A stretch of 64,000 nt of DNA from an uncultured Clostridia bacterium (GCA_934149365.1 CAKPEI010000004.1:112487-176486); one strand, 5' to 3'; numbered from the stretch's first letter, positions 32,258-49,970 are shown. Notes: generated from the letters alone by a model not told the origin. A program made the numbers and translations.

Positions 32258-32292
32258 AAAGTGGTTAAGAAATATACTTAACCACTTTTTTT
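32258..32292. terminator. Bidirectional terminator shared by the PBP gene and spoIIR
   Basis: Perfect stem aaagtggttaag (32258-32269) / cttaaccacttt (32277-32288). It overlaps the spoIIR stop codon. Confidence 0.8.
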
Positions 32293-32834
32293 AAAGTTTC
32301 TACTATTCCTGATTGTATTTGTATTTCTTCATTTTCATCATATAATTCATCTTTTCCTAACTCATAGTTTGGATTATACGCATATGGAAAAATAAGTGTC
32401 CAAAAATTTTCTCCATTTCCATTACCTAATACTATTTGCATAGAATCGTAAGTTCCTTTTTTCATGTCTATTTTATCAGAATGCTTTTCTCCGTAAGCTA
32501 TTTTGCCTATTTTTGCAATTGCAAAGTAATTTGTATTTTCTTTAGCTAGTTCATTATTTGCTATTTCTAAGATATTACCAATATTATTCTGTATAATTTC
32601 TTTGGTATTTTCTTTATTAATATTTTCCATATTCAAATTAGATATATAATTAGTTATCTTTTTTGATATTTTTAATTTAGTTATCTGGTCATCTATTGAA
32701 TTGCTATTTGCTACTATGTGTAATCTAAAGTAATCTTCTTGATTTGAATTTGTTTTTAAGCAAGCTATAACAAGAAACATATTAAGAATTATAAAAGAAA
32801 AAATAAATATATATATACAATAATTTTTATTCAT
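32265..32834 (-). CDS. spoIIR: Stage II sporulation protein R
   Basis: 189 aa with a signal-anchor. The motif FRLHIVANSNSIDDQ is typical of SpoIIR. Confidence 0.85.
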   Translation of the reverse strand: MNKNYCIYIFIFSFIILNMFLVIACLKTNSNQEDYFRLHIVANSNSIDDQITKLKISKKITNYISNLNMENINKENTKEIIQNNIGNILEIANNELAKENTNYFAIAKIGKIAYGEKHSDKIDMKKGTYDSMQIVLGNGNGENFWTLIFPYAYNPNYELGKDELYDENEEIQIQSGIVETLKKVVKYIS

Positions 32835-36878: not shown

Positions 36879-38246
36879 ATGAACAAAAAGACTTATGTGC
36901 TGAACAAACCTGCCTTATTAACGTCGGAGGAGTCGCTTTTAAGATTTGACGGTGGAGATATTGTTATCCCCATGGCGGTTCTTGAGGATTTACAGTCTTC
37001 AATTTCCAAACTCAAATCTGCGCGGCAAGCCATAGCAAGAAAGGTACTTGATAAGTTAGATAAATTCAACTTTAAAGATTTAAGCACAAAGGGAATTAAA
37101 CTTGAAAACGGAACACTGCTTAAAGTGAGTATAAACTATACGGAAATAGAAGTCGATATAGAAGGCGTGTCACAAAAAGATAAGAGGATACTTCAAACTT
37201 GTCTTGGTCTTAAAAATGAAGGGAAAAATGTTATCCTTATATCAAACAACCCGGTAATGAGAATGAAAGCTAGACAGCTTGGAATTGTATCAGAGGAACT
37301 TAAGGACAGAGTTTTCCCGTCAATTAATGACCAGTATAAAGGTTATGAGGAAGTTTATGCATTATCTTCTGACATTGATGAGCTGTTTAAGAATGGAAGT
37401 CTGGAAAAAGAAAGAATCTATGAGTACGAAAAAGTTGACTGGCAGACAAATTTGTATTTGAGTATAAGGTCGGAGACGAATACTGCGGCGCTTGCATATT
37501 ATGACGGCGATGTTATTGTTCCTATAAAGAACATACCAAAGCCTTATGGTATAACGGCAAAGAATATACGTCAAAAATTCCTTATACATGCGTTAATGGA
37601 TCAGGATACACCTCTGGTTATAATAAAAGGGGTTGCAGGAACCGGTAAGACATTTTGTTCTCTCGGAGCAGCGCTTGAGCAAACCGTAAAGAAAGATATA
37701 TATGATCAGATTTTGATTACAAAATCTACTAAAAAAGTGGATCAAGAAGAACTTGGATATCTTCCGGGTGATTTGAGTGAGAAGTTTGATCCGTATATAT
37801 CGAGTATATACGATAACCTTGAAGTCTTGTACAGAGCGCAGAATGGAAGAGGTTCTGAGAGTTACAAAGAAAGCACAAAGTTTAAGTCGTTAAGAGAAGA
37901 AATAAATGGTTGCTTGTTTGATACTGAAATAATTAAGATTCAGACAGTTGGCCATATAAGAGGTCGTTCTCTTATAAACAAGATATTCATTATCGATGAA
38001 ACTCAGAACATTGCGCCGGAATCAATAAAACAGATTGTAACAAGAGCTGGCGAAGGTTCCAAGTTCATATTCTTAGGAGACCCTACACAGGTAGATTCAC
38101 CTGAACTTACTGAGAAATACAATGGACTTGTATATCTCTCGGAGATGATGAAAGGTAAGCCACTTTGCAGGCAGATAACATTGGAAACTGCAGGAGATGC
38201 AGTAAGATCTCCTCTTGCACAGCTTGCAGTTGATGCACTTATTTAA
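36879..38246 (+). CDS. PIN-domain plus PhoH-like ATPase (YlaK-type)
   Basis: Walker A GVAGTGKTF and Walker B IIDETQN. N-terminal PIN-like domain. 455 aa. Visibly higher G+C than most of the window. Confidence 0.88.
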   Translation: MNKKTYVLNKPALLTSEESLLRFDGGDIVIPMAVLEDLQSSISKLKSARQAIARKVLDKLDKFNFKDLSTKGIKLENGTLLKVSINYTEIEVDIEGVSQKDKRILQTCLGLKNEGKNVILISNNPVMRMKARQLGIVSEELKDRVFPSINDQYKGYEEVYALSSDIDELFKNGSLEKERIYEYEKVDWQTNLYLSIRSETNTAALAYYDGDVIVPIKNIPKPYGITAKNIRQKFLIHALMDQDTPLVIIKGVAGTGKTFCSLGAALEQTVKKDIYDQILITKSTKKVDQEELGYLPGDLSEKFDPYISSIYDNLEVLYRAQNGRGSESYKESTKFKSLREEINGCLFDTEIIKIQTVGHIRGRSLINKIFIIDETQNIAPESIKQIVTRAGEGSKFIFLGDPTQVDSPELTEKYNGLVYLSEMMKGKPLCRQITLETAGDAVRSPLAQLAVDALI

Positions 38247-38263
38247 AGTTTAAAAGATGGTAA

Positions 38264-38292
38264 AAAGCTAGGAAAATTTTTCCTGGCTTTTT
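38264..38292 (+). terminator. Rho-independent terminator
   Basis: aaagctaggaaaa / ttttcctggcttt hairpin followed by T residues. Confidence 0.75.
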
Positions 38293-38311
38293 GCTATTTA
38301 TGTATTAATGG

Positions 38312-38340
38312 TATACAAAACATACTTAGTATGATATAAT
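38312..38340 (+). promoter_or_regulatory. Candidate promoter of the toxin-like operon
   Basis: Weak -35 TATACA (38312-38317), 17 nt, extended -10 TGaTATAAT (38332-38340). Confidence 0.45.
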
Positions 38341-38400
38341 TAATTATGTAATGTAAGTTACAGATTAATTTAATAATTTAAATTTAGGAGGGGATTTTTT

Positions 38401-40110
38401 ATGAGTAAAAAAGTCACGAGTATTTTTATGGCTGTTTTGATGGTCCTGACGTGTGTTTTTACACAGATACCTGCAGTAACAGTCCATGCATTTTCAAGTT
38501 ATCAGGTTGAGGTTACTAAAGATAACGCGCCTATTAGAAATGGATATTATCAATCCAAGAAAATAGTGCGGAGAGTAAGTAAAGGAACAATACTCACAGT
38601 AATTGATGAAAAAACCAACTTGAAATTTAACAAGTGGTACAAGGTAGGCAAGGATGAGTATATATTTAGCGGTAACGTAAAAAAGGTACAGAAGCCTCAC
38701 ACACATAGTTATAAAAGGACGGGTTACGAAAAAGCGCATCCACATTATGCAATTTATGACTGTTCATGTGGTCAAGGAGGATATTGCTCTAATACGGAAA
38801 CTAAGAAACAGGCAGGATGTAATAAATGCTATCCACCTGAGGAGGCAAAGCTTAAACCATATGCTCCAGATATTCCAGTAATAAATCCTGAACAAACGGT
38901 CAAGGAATATCAGAGAGTACATGAGCACAAGTACAACATTACAGGGTATGCAAATGAACATCCGCATTATGCTCAAAAAGAATGTTCTTGTGGTAGCAAG
39001 ATAAAAGGAAACGAAACTACAAGAAAAGATGGTTGTGAAACATGTTACCCACCAATAGCTAAAGTGATAGAGTCCATGCCAGATAGATTTTCGCATGAAT
39101 GTAAATATGTAGCTATAGGTAGTTTTGCAGAACATCCCCATTATACTAAAGAAAAATGTGAAGAATGTGGAAACATAAGAACTAACACTTATGTTACTAA
39201 ATTCGATCCTAACTGTAGCATTTGTACATCTCCTTTTAAAACGGGAATAGATTATACTGATTTAACAGGAAGACTGTATGATTTGTCTAATGGTTATACG
39301 TGGGACTTTACAAACGGTCAAAAGAAAGAGTTATATGATTTTGCATCCGATTTACATGCATCTTTGGATATATGTGGTTTGGTGTTTGATGGCTGTGATT
39401 TGTTAAATGTTGCATTTTACATTGTAGAAGGAAAATGGGCAGATGCGGCTTTGTCTGGAGTAGCTGTAATACCATATATAGGCATTGTTACACCATCTGG
39501 TAAGGCAATAGCAAAATCTGGGAAGATAACCGTGGATGCAGCTCAAGGGACAGGAGCCAAAATTGTTAGAGAAACTACTGAAGATGTAGGTGAAAAAGTT
39601 GCTACAAAAATAACAAAAGATGTGGTAACTAAGAATTTGGGAAATTTATCCGACACTGCAAAAGCAATAGTAAAGAACTCTGACGATTACTCTGAAGGCT
39701 TACTTAGAACAATAAAGAAAATCTCTGAAAATCAAAAGGTGGATCTCTCTGATGCGTTTTATAAAAAACAGTTACTTTTAGGAAAGGATTATTCAGCAGA
39801 GATAGTTACAAAAAGTGGTCTTAGATATGCGAATGTGAGAGGTGAAAACCGGATAATGCATATTGTAGAAAGACACGGACTTTATTCTTCTGATGCAACT
39901 AGAAATCATTTTAAAGTGGCCGGGAAACAAATTTTCGACATTATAGATGATGTGGTGTTAGATGGTAATATCATAGCGAAGTCTCAAAGTAAAAATGGTA
40001 ATATGGTAATAGACTATATAGCACCTTATGTTATAGGAAGTAATGGTGAAATGAAATTACGTCTAATAACTTATGAAGGAAAAGTTGTAACGGCATTTCC
40101 AATGAACTAG
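38401..40110 (+). CDS. Secreted multidomain polymorphic-toxin-like protein: signal peptide, SH3b-like segment, 3 His/Cys repeats, PT-TG-like module, unassigned C-terminal domain
   Basis: Signal peptide ending ..AVTVHA/FS. SH3b-like aa 35-95. Repeats with HPHY..CxCG..CxxC at aa 99-146, 174-217 and 231-278. aa 320-375 (DICGLVFDGCDLLNVAFYIVEGKWADAALSGVAVIPYIG) resembles the pre-toxin TG module. The C-terminal ~100 aa carry IMHIVERHG. Confidence 0.6.
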   Translation: MSKKVTSIFMAVLMVLTCVFTQIPAVTVHAFSSYQVEVTKDNAPIRNGYYQSKKIVRRVSKGTILTVIDEKTNLKFNKWYKVGKDEYIFSGNVKKVQKPHTHSYKRTGYEKAHPHYAIYDCSCGQGGYCSNTETKKQAGCNKCYPPEEAKLKPYAPDIPVINPEQTVKEYQRVHEHKYNITGYANEHPHYAQKECSCGSKIKGNETTRKDGCETCYPPIAKVIESMPDRFSHECKYVAIGSFAEHPHYTKEKCEECGNIRTNTYVTKFDPNCSICTSPFKTGIDYTDLTGRLYDLSNGYTWDFTNGQKKELYDFASDLHASLDICGLVFDGCDLLNVAFYIVEGKWADAALSGVAVIPYIGIVTPSGKAIAKSGKITVDAAQGTGAKIVRETTEDVGEKVATKITKDVVTKNLGNLSDTAKAIVKNSDDYSEGLLRTIKKISENQKVDLSDAFYKKQLLLGKDYSAEIVTKSGLRYANVRGENRIMHIVERHGLYSSDATRNHFKVAGKQIFDIIDDVVLDGNIIAKSQSKNGNMVIDYIAPYVIGSNGEMKLRLITYEGKVVTAFPMN

Positions 40111-40121
40111 GAGGTAAAAAC

Positions 40122-40346
40122 ATGAAGTGTAATTTTTGTGGTCAAGGAGACATTGTCGTAGCTACAATGAAAGATGGCAAAACTAAACTTGCAATTTGTG
40201 ATGAATGCGACGAGGTCTACGAAATTGATAAAAATGGCAAAGTTGTAATGGATCATGATCCAAACGACGTCGAGTATAATGAAAGACTAAATGCTTTATT
40301 TAAGTCTTGGGATGACGTTTTGTCTTACGTAAAGTATGATGAGTAA
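40122..40346 (+). CDS. Candidate immunity protein (74 aa, zinc-ribbon-like CxxC..CxxC)
   Basis: Starts 12 nt after the toxin stop, behind its own GGAGG. CNFCGQGD .. CDECDE. Acidic. The role is inferred from position only. Confidence 0.45.
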   Translation: MKCNFCGQGDIVVATMKDGKTKLAICDECDEVYEIDKNGKVVMDHDPNDVEYNERLNALFKSWDDVLSYVKYDE

Positions 40347-40393
40347 TATGTCGTAGATTTTAATTAAAAATATGTGCAAGAGGAGGAATAGAC

Positions 40394-41116
40394 GTGAATA
40401 AAATTCTGAGAGTACTTGTTACTATTATTTTGTTTACTACCTTAATTGGAACAGCTGTCATGGCTTCAAGTGACTTCTGTAAAGAATCTGAAGATGGTGA
40501 ACACTTATTTGAAAGTATGGATGTAGAAAATAAACATCCACATGCAGGAGAATATACATGTTATTGTGGTGAGAAGATTTATTTTTCAAAGTCGTACTTG
40601 CCAGAGGAGTGTAAAAAATGCAGAGAAGAATTGTGCAAAGTTGGTATACACAATTACTCTTTTGATAGCTATGAAGAAGATGGAATTATACTATGTGAAT
40701 GCTATTGCGGAGATACAGAGTATCTATCTAAAAAAGAGTCTGATGAATTTTTAAATAAAGTAGGAAAAGAGGAAGTTATACACTTTCCTAATTGTGAACT
40801 TACTTATGAAAAAATTCATCCACATGCAGGCTATACTGAATATTCTGATGGTTATGTAGAGTATTTTGATGATTTTCATGCAGGTGACTGTATAATATGT
40901 CAGTTTAATGATGACTATATTATAGAAGTTGATAATTACCAAAGAGACCTTATAATATACGGTGAAGGAATCAGAGAAGAGTATGATTCTTCAGAAGATG
41001 ATTCGTATAATTCTAAAGCCACCAACTATTATGAAGGAAACTATGGAAACACTTCAAGTGTTCAGGAATATGATGACTTTTATGAGTGGCTTGAAATTAT
41101 GAAAGAATTATTGTAA
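40394..41116 (+). CDS. Secreted His/Cys-repeat protein related to the toxin's N-terminal module, with no toxin domain
   Basis: GTG start 7 nt after AGGAGG. Signal peptide ..GTAVMA/SS. KHPHAGEYTCYCGEK..CKKC and KIHPHAGY..CIICQ motifs. Acidic Tyr-rich C-terminal tail. Confidence 0.6.
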   Translation: MNKILRVLVTIILFTTLIGTAVMASSDFCKESEDGEHLFESMDVENKHPHAGEYTCYCGEKIYFSKSYLPEECKKCREELCKVGIHNYSFDSYEEDGIILCECYCGDTEYLSKKESDEFLNKVGKEEVIHFPNCELTYEKIHPHAGYTEYSDGYVEYFDDFHAGDCIICQFNDDYIIEVDNYQRDLIIYGEGIREEYDSSEDDSYNSKATNYYEGNYGNTSSVQEYDDFYEWLEIMKELL

Positions 41117-41127
41117 TCATTATGGGA

Positions 41128-41166
41128 GAGTGTTAAGAAGTTAAAACTTCTTAGCACTCTTTCTAG
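41128..41166 (+). terminator. Rho-independent terminator of the toxin-like operon
   Basis: 16-bp stem agagtgttaagaagtt / aacttcttagcactct (one G-U pair), then ttct. Confidence 0.8.
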
Positions 41167-41279: not shown

Positions 41280-41348
41280 ATGTTAACTAAAACGCGTAAA
41301 ACCATTGGGAGAGTAACACACGCGCGCGCACACACAAGTAATATCTAG
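41280..41348 (+). CDS. Speculative 22-codon basic mini-ORF
   Basis: AAAGAGGTGA lies 7 nt before the ATG. The peptide is MLTKTRKTIGRVTHARAHTSNI. It contains the alternating Pu/Py tract. Confidence 0.2.
   Translation: MLTKTRKTIGRVTHARAHTSNI
41316..41336. repeat. 21-nt alternating purine/pyrimidine tract (AC)3(GC)4(AC)3A
   Basis: acacacgcgcgcgcacacaca read directly from the sequence. It is an extreme compositional outlier in this AT-rich window. Confidence 0.9.
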
Positions 41349-41616: not shown

Positions 41617-42751
41617 ATGGGAACAAAAGTAAAATCGAGAAAGCGGAATATCATTAATAGTATTAGTAATAACAATAATAGTAATGATAATATTAGCAGC
41701 CGCAATAATACTATCACTATCAAATAGTGGAATAATAGGGAAGGCAAATAAAGCCAAAACAGATAGTGATACAGCAAATTTAAAAGAGTATGTAAATACA
41801 CTAAGAGCAGAATGGGAGTTAATGACAGCAGAAGAACAAACAGCAGCAGGGTCATTTGTAGATTATGCAAATTCTAAGTTAGCTGAGAAAGGTTACAAAA
41901 GAGAGCTAGCAGCAGATGGAGAGACAGTAATGAATGAAAATGCGACAGCAGCAGTAAAAGCAGGAATAAAGGTAGGATGTGAGGTAGAAGGTTATAATGA
42001 TTTGCTTGATGAAAAGGAGTATCCAATAAAGGCAGGAGTGATAGATGCTACAGATGAACAAACATTAAAAACAAATTCGAAATATAAGTGGTATTATATT
42101 GGAATAGGAGAAGATGGAAATTTATTAATAGCGCCTAAAATATCAGGAACATTAGCAGCAGAAGATAAGATGACGTTAAAAGGGGTAAAAGGATATTTAA
42201 ATGGAGAAGAAGAGTTAAATAATGCGTGTAGGGTACTATATTCGGTAGAAGGAAAAGGAACGGCAAGAAGTATGAATATAGATGATGTGAATAGTATATT
42301 GGGATATACTGGTGAAAAAGGCCAATATTACGATGAAACTGATAATTTGCTTACAATAGGTCAAACTGGTCAAGTTAAAGAATTGGGCACAAATACAAGA
42401 ACTCCAGAGAAACCAACAAATGGAACAGTAGAAGATATAAGTAAATATAAATTAGATTTTTATAGTGTAAGTAAATCAAGAACTGATATTATAAACAAAG
42501 AACTTGTATTCGCATCTAGTGACACTTGTGCGTATTGGCTTTCATCTACGTGTGTTGGTGCGTATTTTAACCTTGGTTATGCCTTTTTTAGTATGCGAGG
42601 AGTGAATTCTATAAGTGTAAACTCATATAGCTTGTTTTATTCACAAAACAGTTCAAGAACAATGTCCTGTGCAGTTCGTCCTGTAGTAGCATTAAATTCT
42701 AATATGAAATTAACACCAAATGCAGATAAAACAGTGTGGGCAATAAACTAG
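41617..42751 (+). pseudogene. Pilin-like protein with DUF1566-like C-terminus, paralogue of 59181-60356, N-terminus disrupted by a 1-nt insertion
   Basis: GGAGG (41604-41608) then ATG at 41617 gives MGTKVKSRK. After an extra C at 41644 the +1 frame reads GISLIVLVITIIVMIILAAAIILSLSNSGIIGKANKAK, near-identical to the 59181 protein. The original frame stops after 36 codons. Confidence 0.6.
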
Positions 42752-47648: not shown

Positions 47649-49970
47649 ATGGTTTTTGAACAAGAGCAGAGTGATACAATAAACGTAAAGTATAGTAAAT
47701 TAGATGGCGTGTTATCATTTTTTAAGAATATTGTTGGTTATAAAGTATTTATATTTACAGTTATATTAGCTGTATCTAGCATGGTATCAATCTTTGGATA
47801 TCATCCAATACCATTTGTGATGTTAGCAGTAGCAACTGTATTTAAAATACCGTTACTACTTCCTGGTGTTGTTACGGTACTGTCAATGATTATTTTAAAA
47901 GCAAGTGTACCTGAGATTATGCTATATGTTTTGACAAATATAACATACATAATAGCGACAGTGGCTATAAATATTCAGGATGTAGGGCGAAAAGTTGCAA
48001 TTGGAATAAAATTGGCAATTTCTATGGCAATAGTAACAGTTATAATGTTCTTCGTTAAGAATTTTGAATTAGGTTATTTATTAGATAATGTTGCATTAAT
48101 ATTTTTGGTACAAGCAATATATTATGTATATGTGCATGGCTTTTATTTTCTATCAAACATAGATAAAAATATGATATATTCAGTGGAAGAAATTGTTTCT
48201 ATGGCTGTCATGGTTATGATAACATTACTTCCTATTACAAATGCCGGAACTGTTGGAATGAATATATGGATGACAATCTGTCTATTGTTTGTAGTACTTA
48301 TTGGTTATACAGGTAATGCAATATCTGGGGTAGCAGTGAGTGTAGTATTAGGTATGTTTAGTGCTATTTTATCAAAAGATATAAATTTACTTGCCGTAGT
48401 GGCAGCTCCTGGAATAGTTGCTAGTTTATTAAATAGAGTTAATAAAGCCTTTTCAATAATTGGTGTTGTTATTTCTGCTGTTATTTTAAATTATATAATG
48501 CAAAGAAATTTAGTAATATCTCCAGAAATAATAGAAACAGCAATAGCTTCACTTGTAATATTGATATTACCAAAGAAAGTTATGGTTGTACTTGAAGACA
48601 TATTTGATAAGAACAACACTCTAAGAAGTGCATATGAAAAAGAACTTGGTGTTGGAAGTGATATAAAAAACAAACTTAGTGCAATGTCTGAGGTGTTTGA
48701 CAATTTATCTAGCATAACATTAAACTCTAATAAAGAATACTTCGAAGAAACACAAAAAGTTATAGAGAAGTATTTAAATGATTACAAAGAATCAAAATGC
48801 TTGAGTTGTAACAAAAGGTATTATTGTTTAAAAGATAATATGAATTTAGTATCTTCGTACATTGCTAGAAAACTTGAGGGAAATGATGAAATTACAGAAA
48901 GTATGCTTCCAGTTGATTGTGAAGAAGCTACTGTAATGATAAAAGAAATAAAAGACATATATAACAATATGAAGCTTATGAGAATAATAAAACAAAAAGA
49001 GGAAGAGAGTAATATTAAGCTTGCAAATGAATATAAAGAAGTTGCCACTCTTATAAAGAATATGTCAAGAGATGTAAATAAGCTAAAAAAAGAAGTGTCT
49101 TATACACAAAAATGTATTAGACAAGAGTTAAAACTTTTAGGCTATCAAATATATGAAGATAATTATATAGATGAAAAAGATAATAAAATATATGAATTCA
49201 TTACCGATATTTTAGATGATGTTGATAAAGCCAAAGGTGAAATACAGACAGTAGTTGGCGAAGTGATAGGCCAAAAGATGAATATTAAGCTTATACTAAA
49301 TAGTAGCAAAAACGAAAAATCAAGAATTAAACTTGTGTCAGATGGTAAGTATGCTATAAGCACTGAAATTTACCAGAAAAGTAAAAATGAAGGCGAAAAA
49401 AATGGAGATACGTATTATGTGTCTGATATAAAAAATGGTAAAGTAATAGCGATAAGTGATGGAATGGGCTCTGGAAGTAATGCTAACCAAACAAGTTCTG
49501 CAGTAATAAGTATGGTAGAGAAACTTTTAGAAAGTGGCTTCGGAAACAGTACTATTACCAAAGTTGTAAATGGTATGGTTAAGCTAAAAGAGGATGCAAG
49601 TAATGCGGCAACTTTGGATATGACAGTTATAAATACAAATAAAGAAAAAATAGAGTTTGTAAAAGCTGGAGCAGCACCTACATATGTTATATCCAATTTC
49701 GAATTACAGGAAATAGGTGAAGATACATTACCGTTGGGACAAAATATTGATATAAATTATGATAGTAATAGTATAGAAATAAAATCACCTATGATTGTTG
49801 TGAATATTTCAGACGGAGCTTATAGCGATGAATTAAGAGAATATTTTGAATACATTTCAAAAAAGAATTTTGCTTTTATAACAAAGAAAGAAATAATATC
49901 TGGAATAATTGAAAGAATAAGTGAAAATAGCAGTGACGATGTAACTATAATTGTTACTAAAATAGAATAA
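47649..49970 (+). CDS. spoIIE: Stage II sporulation protein E (PP2C phosphatase)
   Basis: About ten N-terminal TM helices plus a C-terminal PP2C domain (VIAISDGMGSGSNA .. DDVTIIV). 773 aa. Confidence 0.9.
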   Translation: MVFEQEQSDTINVKYSKLDGVLSFFKNIVGYKVFIFTVILAVSSMVSIFGYHPIPFVMLAVATVFKIPLLLPGVVTVLSMIILKASVPEIMLYVLTNITYIIATVAINIQDVGRKVAIGIKLAISMAIVTVIMFFVKNFELGYLLDNVALIFLVQAIYYVYVHGFYFLSNIDKNMIYSVEEIVSMAVMVMITLLPITNAGTVGMNIWMTICLLFVVLIGYTGNAISGVAVSVVLGMFSAILSKDINLLAVVAAPGIVASLLNRVNKAFSIIGVVISAVILNYIMQRNLVISPEIIETAIASLVILILPKKVMVVLEDIFDKNNTLRSAYEKELGVGSDIKNKLSAMSEVFDNLSSITLNSNKEYFEETQKVIEKYLNDYKESKCLSCNKRYYCLKDNMNLVSSYIARKLEGNDEITESMLPVDCEEATVMIKEIKDIYNNMKLMRIIKQKEEESNIKLANEYKEVATLIKNMSRDVNKLKKEVSYTQKCIRQELKLLGYQIYEDNYIDEKDNKIYEFITDILDDVDKAKGEIQTVVGEVIGQKMNIKLILNSSKNEKSRIKLVSDGKYAISTEIYQKSKNEGEKNGDTYYVSDIKNGKVIAISDGMGSGSNANQTSSAVISMVEKLLESGFGNSTITKVVNGMVKLKEDASNAATLDMTVINTNKEKIEFVKAGAAPTYVISNFELQEIGEDTLPLGQNIDINYDSNSIEIKSPMIVVNISDGAYSDELREYFEYISKKNFAFITKKEIISGIIERISENSSDDVTIIVTKIE

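Follow-up and report, generated by a model that had tools for sequence, protein, structure and literature searches.

A three-gene operon of an uncultured Clostridia bacterium pairs a putative BECR-type RNase toxin with a probable zinc-ribbon immunity gene and a predicted secreted partner

Introduction

Do three adjoining genes of an uncultured Clostridia bacterium make up a system for antagonism between bacteria and, if so, what does its toxin do? The question is raised by positions 38401-41116 of a 64,000-nucleotide (nt) stretch of DNA (GCA_934149365.1, CAKPEI010000004.1:112487-176486), referred to below as the window. The genes, here called A, B and C, are co-oriented on the + strand and form one operon. 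An earlier sequence-only reading of the window had likened their products to a polymorphic toxin, its immunity protein and a toxin-less secreted relative, and the three open reading frames (ORFs) that it drew are found in the sequence exactly where it placed them:

38401-40110, + strand: gene A, coding for a predicted exported, modular toxin precursor of 569 amino acids (aa).
39766-40107, + strand: putative C-terminal toxin domain of A, aa 456-569, with a predicted local distance difference test score (pLDDT) of 85-92 in the full-length model.
40122-40346, + strand: gene B, coding for a 74-aa acidic, cytoplasmic, four-Cys predicted zinc-ribbon protein, the probable cognate immunity protein.
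40394-41116, + strand: gene C, 240 aa with a GTG start, coding for a predicted secreted, very acidic protein with His/Cys modules.

The concept of a toxin-immunity pair is established, and the present system is one that, judging by its sequence, would work like a polymorphic toxin-immunity pair. Taking all the evidence together, we find it likely that the A-B-C operon serves antagonism between bacteria and encodes a BECR-type RNase toxin, a zinc-ribbon immunity protein and the secreted protein C.

Results

Linkage of gene B to the C-terminal domain of A

The B protein is acidic (isoelectric point, pI, 4.4) and has no signal peptide. Its relatives all have its four cysteines, C3, C6, C26 and C29. 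Its profile signals are weak, generic zinc-ribbon matches only, namely the ClpX zinc finger (E 3.2e-4) and, also weakly, Lar-like and TFIIS-like ribbons. The relationship between B and the C-terminal domain of A was assessed from the first ORF 3' of the toxin stop codon in 48 distant loci having such an ORF. In 46 of these, the ORF codes for a CxxC...CxxC protein of 62-185 aa (mostly 65-91), the genes starting -11 to +30 nt from the toxin stop. A hidden Markov model (HMM) built from the window-clade homologues of B only matches 43 of the 48 (E<=1e-3). Reciprocally, when an HMM of the distant proteins was run against the 454 ORF fragments of the window, B was the sole significant match (E 3.4e-10). 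The linked loci span Proteobacteria, Planctomycetota, Acidobacteriota and Firmicutes. The 46 and 43 positives out of 48 strongly suggest that B is the cognate immunity protein. The sequence-only reading had put B forward as an immunity candidate and had named, as an outcome that would speak against this, a B family unlinked to the domain in other genomes; what the survey returned is a homologue of B adjoining the domain in 43-46 of 48 distant loci, on different N-terminal scaffolds.

The two partners also appear to have evolved together. Identities between toxin domains and identities between immunity proteins are correlated over 42 pairs (r=0.65, a value reached in 0 of 2000 permutations; r=0.60 for the distant set alone). 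With a mean identity of 31%, as opposed to 46% for the toxin domains, the immunity proteins diverge faster. We hold it very probable that the C-terminal domain of A and the B protein stand in a toxin-immunity relationship.

A zinc ribbon is unusual in an immunity protein. A TFIIS-like immunity family with four cysteines, 4Cys-Imm, has been described as the partner of a BECR toxin among the Sec-dependent toxins of Gram-positive bacteria (PMC9424270). B is likened to this family by features only, these being the four conserved Cys residues, the predicted TFIIS-like zinc knuckle and the putative BECR partner.

Recurrence of the C-terminal domain on unrelated scaffolds

A profile of the C-terminal domain retrieved at least 371 representative proteins (E<=1e-3). 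The proteins carrying it range from 53 to 1384 aa, and the domain ends at most 10 residues from the C-terminus in 154 of the 155 proteins examined. Among the carriers are Rhs-repeat proteins (P0027, P0056, P0155 and, at locus L016, a Clostridium argentinense protein with 12 Rhs repeats), PT-HINT proteins (P0037, P0039, P0071) and CdiA-type proteins (P0075 and, at locus L035, a Pseudomonas protein with Fil_haemagg_2, or haemagglutinin, repeats plus DUF637); ALF and VWA proteins carry the domain as well. This recurrence at the extreme C-terminus of Rhs, CdiA-type and PT-HINT proteins supports the toxin-type character that had been ascribed to the domain from the window's sequence.

A genome scan, run with a 12-sequence subfamily alignment because the 44-sequence alignment was too diverse, identified members on the Proteobacteria side in Pseudomonas, Achromobacter, Paraburkholderia and Nitrosomonas, and further members in Planctomycetota, Acidobacteriota, Limisphaerales, Clostridium, Lachnospiraceae, Paenibacillus, Bacillus and others. 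The toxin-immunity family thus spans at least five phyla and includes many Pseudomonas CdiA-type proteins along with the Clostridium Rhs protein. No Pfam or NCBIfam model was found for the toxin domain, and the Pfam families bearing an Ntox name did not match any of 44 members even at E<=1. The pair is therefore a widespread family that Pfam and NCBIfam have not curated. A simple annotation rule (a two-His domain ending in TAYP, then a gene of about 70 aa with CPxC..CxEC) would label hundreds of "hypothetical" genes as toxin-immunity pairs.

Predicted fold and conserved residues of the toxin domain

The AlphaFold model of the isolated domain (pLDDT 92.5; predicted template modelling score 0.85) consists, in order, of a short hairpin, a helix (29-37) bearing both conserved His residues, a second helix (55-66) and four consecutive strands. 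H487 and H492, on the first helix, are present in 154 of 154 members. R484 is found in 145 of these, Y476 in 152 and D516 in 151, and the last strand has T (132 members) or S (22 members) at position 564. G546 is invariant in all 155 aligned sequences, P567 is also conserved, and the domain closes with a TA[YF]P motif; in A it contains IMHIVERHG and ends in VVTAFPMN. Since the window copy retains every residue conserved in the family, it looks intact. The domain is basic (pI 9.2).

In the BECR fold, by definition, a helical segment at the N-terminus leads into a meander of four strands, of which the fourth carries a conserved S/T, and BECR clades with two His residues are predicted to cut RNA in the manner of RNase A (PMC3482391). 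The secondary-structure order of the model and the strand-4 Thr/Ser fit the published definition, and we regard the fold as probably BECR-RNase-like. R484, H487, H492 and T564 are the candidate catalytic residues suggested by conservation and by the model. On these grounds we lean towards RNase chemistry for the domain. The BECR-like fold had been offered as a guess in the sequence-only reading; the order of elements and the strand-4 residue support it in part, and the structure searches described further below bring it no significant match.

Seven of 44 members match the Pfam EndoU_bacteria family, all below threshold (best E 1.6e-4). Sequence searches of the PDB with the domain (single sequence and two profiles) returned nothing, and no solved structure was found for the family. 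A weak Foldseek match to 8hhj_B, considered as an EndoU-type toxin, was dropped: its toxin adopts the fold of RNase A, and the chain matched may be the immunity protein.

Several described toxins resemble the domain in part. Ntox35 (PMC3482391), compared by its description, has two N-terminal His residues and an S/T in strand 4, as here. The passages on Ntox41 in the same paper present it as a predicted BECR clade with the motifs [RK]H, [KR] and [ST]xxP, found on HINT, RHS, FilH and ALF scaffolds, with an immunity protein given there as not known. By motif description only, R491-H492 and T564-x-x-P567 are compatible with Ntox41 as portrayed in these passages, and the scaffold types are alike; within the present family, only the window clade has the [RK]H pair. 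EndoU toxins (PF14436) have the two-His, metal-independent RNase logic and the BECR-type core that are predicted here, and they are the target of the weak, sub-threshold matches just mentioned. The immunity proteins known for EndoU toxins (SUKH, SuFu, Imm28) are unrelated to a zinc ribbon. Finally, in the CdiA-CT/CdiI pair of Serratia marcescens BWH57 (CASP14 target T1065, PMC8616854), the active-site candidates H47, E51 and H52 lie on a helix, and the CdiI protein, acidic like B, covers a basic surface of its toxin. The BWH57 toxin belongs to another sequence family, missing from the PDB profile searches and from the top 50 Foldseek matches, and its CdiI differs from B in being an alpha/beta protein of 98 aa that lacks a zinc ribbon (PMC8616854).

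Anatomy of the A scaffold

Upstream from the toxin domain, A is divided into the following segments:

38401-38490, + strand: signal-peptide-like N-terminus, aa 1-30 (MSKK, a hydrophobic core, then VHA followed by F), aligned with the N-termini of relatives.
38491-38685, + strand: SH3b-like domain, aa 31-95 (modelled from 34 to 95, pLDDT 78-88).
38692-39237, + strand: three His/Cys repeats, aa 98-279, of the pattern H.H.Y...HPHYA...C.CG...C..CYP.
39313-39504, + strand: helical pre-toxin module, aa 305-368, of the pattern H..LD..GL....DG.N..YY..EG....LSG.A..P..G....GK.
39505-39624, + strand: linker, aa 369-408, poorly conserved, of variable length and predicted to be disordered.
39625-39765, + strand: clade-specific helical segment, aa 409-455 (pLDDT about 78-87, helices 418-452).

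Although AlphaFold modelled A as a whole with a low pLDDT (62.5), the individual segments of the model are informative. Residues 2-20 form a low-confidence helix. We rejected the possibility that A is a lipoprotein, since "VLTC" makes a poor lipobox and its Cys is missing from the relatives. The SH3b-like segment matches Pfam SH3_3 (PF08239) with an E value of 6.4e-5 and 23.5 bits, under the 27-bit cutoff, and a PHROG amidase C-terminus with an E value of 2.6e-5; P0001, a protein 99% identical to A, has a precomputed PF08239 match. Local Foldseek matches to the cell-wall-binding SH3b domains of bacterial proteins (2kt8, 9ovi, 9kz1; target TM score 0.58-0.74, probability 1.00) point the same way, and the domain is presumed to bind the cell wall. 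The HPH motifs of the three repeats lie at aa 113, 187 and 245. The repeats have no family match in profile searches and are modelled, with low confidence, as beta-hairpins; they are probably metal-stabilised beta-hairpin mini-domains.

Thus the signal peptide, the SH3b-like segment and the three His/Cys repeats that the sequence-only reading had listed are all recognisable, the first from its sequence and its alignment in relatives, the second from the sub-threshold Pfam match and the SH3b fold matches. Its label for the next segment, a pre-toxin TG module, did not hold: PF14449 (PT-TG) does not match A at E<=1, nor any of the 13 clade segments (aa 283-378 region) at E<=10. What exists here is a conserved helical module with 11 invariant columns in 13 sequences and modelled helices over residues 305-353, which retrieved a single marginal fragment (P0159) in a profile search. 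Confidence falls below a pLDDT of 50 over residues 353-408. The helical segment at aa 409-455 stands directly before the toxin domain and is conserved within the A clade only.

The full scaffold is common to about a dozen proteins only (P0002-P0007 and P0011-P0016), with 34-42% identity in the alignment and 35-37% by BLASTP for P0002-P0007. Four copies of the SH3b-like unit of A occur in P0008, an otherwise unrelated surface protein of 939 aa with Flg_new repeats, and three of the four are followed by a short His/Cys knuckle (e.g., H.H.Y..GGYC..CGY). In these bacteria, SH3b joined to a Cys/His knuckle may be a unit for surface display that is used more than once.

Gene C and the scaffold-clade loci

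The N-terminus of C is signal-peptide-like in sequence. The protein (mature pI 4.25) contains an HPH..CxCG..CxxC module weakly similar to A (pairwise E 1e-4), a tail rich in Tyr, Asp and Glu and, at the C-terminus, a conserved YEWLxIxKEIL helix. A profile search with C returned two clusters only, from which the family appears to be confined to A loci. In one relative (L010, 3198-4454), gene C is 418 aa long owing to a duplication of the N-terminal His/Cys module block.

The gene order was compared in nine scaffold-clade loci. It is A-B-C in seven and A-C in two, so that C lies beside A in 9/9 loci and B in 7/9. This suggested that C is more than a bystander paralogue. The sequence-only reading had described C as a toxin-less secreted paralogue of A; the shared His/Cys module is there, with weak similarity between the two proteins, and the notion of a mere bystander gives way to that of a constant companion. 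None of the published descriptions consulted matches an SH3b plus His/Cys-repeat scaffold with an obligatory secreted partner.

The loci differ in their surroundings. In L001, L004 and L005 the operon is directly 3' of a gene pair for KDPG-aldolase and a PfkB sugar kinase. An Exo_endo_phos gene and RecD2 come directly after it in two of these three loci and further downstream in L007. As the window, L009, L010, L066 and L067 have different neighbours, the operon has apparently moved between chromosomal sites.

Alternative readings of the operon

A number of observations weigh against the reading of A-B-C as an operon for antagonism with a BECR-type RNase. Concerning the chemistry, Foldseek gave no significant match for the domain model (none at E<1e-3; best E 0.087 in the PDB and 0.037 among the viral predicted structures of BFVD) and no BECR enzyme is present in the top 50 PDB matches; the fold assignment is consequently one of secondary-structure order and motifs, not of three-dimensional superposition. 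The window copy is without any EndoU_bacteria match. Match coordinates were obtained for one member (a first set of ten members gave no match, a second set one): it scores 17.3 bits, against a cutoff of 25.3, over positions 65-127 of the 129-position profile, and this one inspected alignment covers the beta-sheet half only and leaves out the His-bearing helix. The two His residues are spaced HxxxxH in the window clade versus HxxxH in the main clade, and a third His, frequent in the main clade, is missing from the window clade. The conserved His pair, D516 and E/D517 could equally be a metal site. No experiments on any family member were found in the literature.

These points bear most directly on the alternative that fares best, namely that A and B are a genuine toxin-immunity pair whose toxin uses a metal-binding His/His/Asp/Glu site, as a DNase, phosphodiesterase, peptidase or other hydrolase. 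The conservation of H487, H492, D516 and E/D517 fits such a site, there is no structural match to any BECR RNase, and the likeness to EndoU stays below threshold and does not extend to the His-bearing helix. Yet the order of elements and the strand-4 Thr/Ser fit the BECR definition, the basic domain has an acidic partner as in nuclease toxins, published two-His BECR clades such as Ntox35 follow the same logic (PMC3482391), and 7 of 44 members lean to EndoU, not to any metallo-enzyme family. We consider a metal-dependent hydrolase unlikely.

Other points concern the locus. The A scaffold was never found with another toxin domain, the domain being identical in kind on 13/13 scaffold relatives, and no orphan cassette occurs in the window, where a single toxin domain and a single immunity gene are present. 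Hence the domain is "polymorphic" across scaffolds and this locus itself is not a polymorphic hotspot; the likeness to polymorphic toxins drawn in the sequence-only reading is borne out by the recurrence of the terminal domain on Rhs, CdiA and PT-HINT proteins, with no variation on the A scaffold. Furthermore, B is missing from two of the nine clade loci (L004; L007/L008), and no trace of it exists within the 13.3 kilobases (kb) examined in L004. In both cases (L004, 6001-8707; L007, 157-2809) C starts 13 nt after the stop codon of A, and the loss of B looks, from the sequence, like a clean deletion with the spacing kept. Arg484 is changed to Ala in the A protein of L004 (P0006) and to Ser in that of L007 (P0004), as if toxin and immunity had been given up jointly. 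A correlation between loss of R484 and loss of B was predicted; it held for these two proteins and failed for P0015, which has R484T and a B gene, a score of 2/3 that is not decisive.

The locus data are also those on which a second alternative draws. According to this, A and C would form an extracellular structural or metal-binding complex on the surface of a spore-former, serving chiefly some purpose other than antagonism; the domain would be a former toxin, degenerate or put to another use, and B either a remnant or a regulator. In its favour, A is always accompanied by C but not always by B (9/9 versus 7/9 loci), the scaffold never swaps its toxin domain, R484 is lost in 3/13 clade members, and the operon lies among housekeeping and sporulation genes in a window that shows no sign of mobile elements. 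On the other hand, the window copy keeps all the residues conserved in the family, B is retained in 7/9 loci with its four Cys conserved there, and B co-diverges with the toxin domain across loci. The operon position varies among relatives and the G+C content of the block is the highest in the window, as fits an accessory module. A surface complex is, to our mind, a decidedly improbable explanation.

Least credible of all, at the far end of the scale, is that B acts as a small zinc-finger regulator or as a chaperone for secretion, its place beside these toxins reflecting no more than co-transcription: its generic zinc-ribbon matches would suit such a role, whereas B follows the domain on Sec, type V secretion system-type (CdiA) and Rhs scaffolds, different export routes that argue against a route-specific chaperone, diverges faster than the toxin and together with it, as immunity proteins do, and is acidic where its partner is basic.

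Proposed mode of action and comparison with known systems

If A-B-C is the antagonism operon that we favour, A would be exported by Sec through its cleavable signal peptide and would probably stay attached to the wall of the producer, or close to it, through the SH3b-type domain, the toxin being displayed on a scaffold of metal-stabilised His/Cys mini-domains. The last 110 or so residues would be the toxin, most likely of BECR-type fold, which would cut RNA by metal-independent acid-base catalysis via H487, H492, Arg484 and Thr564. B, a cytoplasmic four-Cys zinc ribbon, would bind and block the basic toxin domain one-to-one, shielding the producer and its kin. C would be secreted and would probably work outside the cell with A, in assembly, release or target binding.

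Whether A and C constitute a new Sec-dependent route for toxin delivery between Gram-positive cells is a more speculative matter, and we rate it as doubtful. Were it so, an SH3b wall-anchored His/Cys scaffold would present the toxin, together with a secreted acidic partner made up of modules of the same kind. The RNase domain would be brought through the target membrane by the helical pre-toxin module, and a type VII secretion system (T7SS), an Rhs cage or a dedicated peptidase would be dispensable. The Sec/SH3b/His-Cys scaffold and its partner C at any rate pose the question of how nuclease toxins are delivered in Gram-positive bacteria without a T7SS, and the small operon offers a tractable test system for it.

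The general plan is that of polymorphic toxin systems in the sense of Zhang, de Souza, Anantharaman, Iyer and Aravind 2012 (PMC3482391): a multi-domain protein, exported by prediction in the present case, has the toxin at its very end, this toxin domain recurs on scaffolds of the Rhs, CdiA/FilH and PT-HINT types, and a small cognate immunity gene comes immediately downstream. Unlike in those systems, the toxin is fixed on the A scaffold (13/13), orphan cassettes are lacking in the window, and a third, secreted gene, C, is obligatorily linked. With the S8-PTS of Gram-positive bacteria (Li, Tan and Zhang 2022, PMC9424270) the operon shares a predicted Sec signal peptide, a presumed presentation or receptor-binding module, a putative BECR-type toxin and a three-component locus. 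It differs in having neither a BetaH domain nor an S8 peptidase; its third component is a secreted His/Cys-module protein and its scaffold is made of SH3b and His/Cys repeats.

Transcription and translation signals of the operon

The signals read in and around the operon are these:

38256-38298, + strand: terminator-like hairpin with a 20-pair stem and then a T-rich tail, ending the upstream PIN-PhoH gene.
38312-38340, + strand: promoter-like site upstream from A, TATACA-17-TATAAT with a TG extended -10; a consensus match only.
38386-38393, + strand: ribosome-binding site of gene A, AGGAGGGG, read from the sequence.
40110-40114, + strand: ribosome-binding site of gene B, GGAGG, overlapping the TAG stop codon of A.
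41127-41160, + strand: 14-base-pair hairpin after gene C with a weak T tail, read from the sequence and not called by the scan.

The hairpin at 38256-38298, being terminator-like, would isolate the operon from the PIN-PhoH gene. Promoter-like sites are no more numerous in the region than in shuffled sequence, so the element at 38312-38340 is weakly supported. Eleven nt separate the stop codon of A from B, an arrangement that makes translational coupling of the two genes plausible. Gene C is preceded by a ribosome-binding site of its own, GAGGAGG. The terminator scan found none between A, B and C, and the hairpin at 41127-41160 is likely to mark the end of the operon transcript.

Base composition and neighbouring genes

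The operon and the PhoH gene together (36879-41116) have a G+C content of 34.9%, the highest in the window, where same-size windows average 29.8% with a standard deviation of 1.7%; the G+C-rich block noted in the sequence-only reading is thus real. The PIN-PhoH fusion gene itself (36879-38246, + strand) reaches 37.4%, the top value among the window's long ORFs. It is parted from the operon by its own terminator-like hairpin, and no functional link between the two was seen.

Neighbours with a Pfam match are SpoIIR, a PP-loop ATPase, an AAA_28 NTPase, mini-RNase III, an ECF sigma factor and SpoIIE. Four neighbouring ORFs have no Pfam match. A 614-aa ORF, by our own reading outside the Pfam scan, is one that we take to be an asparagine synthetase. 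The ORFs scanned within about 8 kb gave no sign of LXG, WXG, T7SS or Rhs genes, or of other genes dedicated to secretion, in agreement with the absence of such parts claimed earlier; a faint PF21725 match (E 0.13) is the sole T7SS/LXG-type signal from Pfam. No signs of mobile elements were seen in the window. Sporulation genes flank the region, SpoIIR at 32268-32834 (- strand) and SpoIIE at 47649-49970 (+ strand). These two genes and the other housekeeping and sporulation neighbours indicate that the host is an endospore-forming, low-G+C Firmicute.

The intergenic region 3' of gene C is 567 nt long and AT-rich. It contains a 21-nt tract of alternating purines and pyrimidines (41316-41336, ACACACGCGCGCGCACACACA), unusual in a genome of 30% G+C. 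The next gene, at 41617-42751 on the + strand, resembles a type IV pilin or pseudopilin, with an N-terminus ...GISLIVLVITIIVMIILAAAIILS. Its ATG at 41617, preceded by a ribosome-binding site, is in another frame than the long ORF at 41684-42751. This mismatch suggests a frameshift near 41640-41650, due to the gene being a pseudogene or to a sequencing error.

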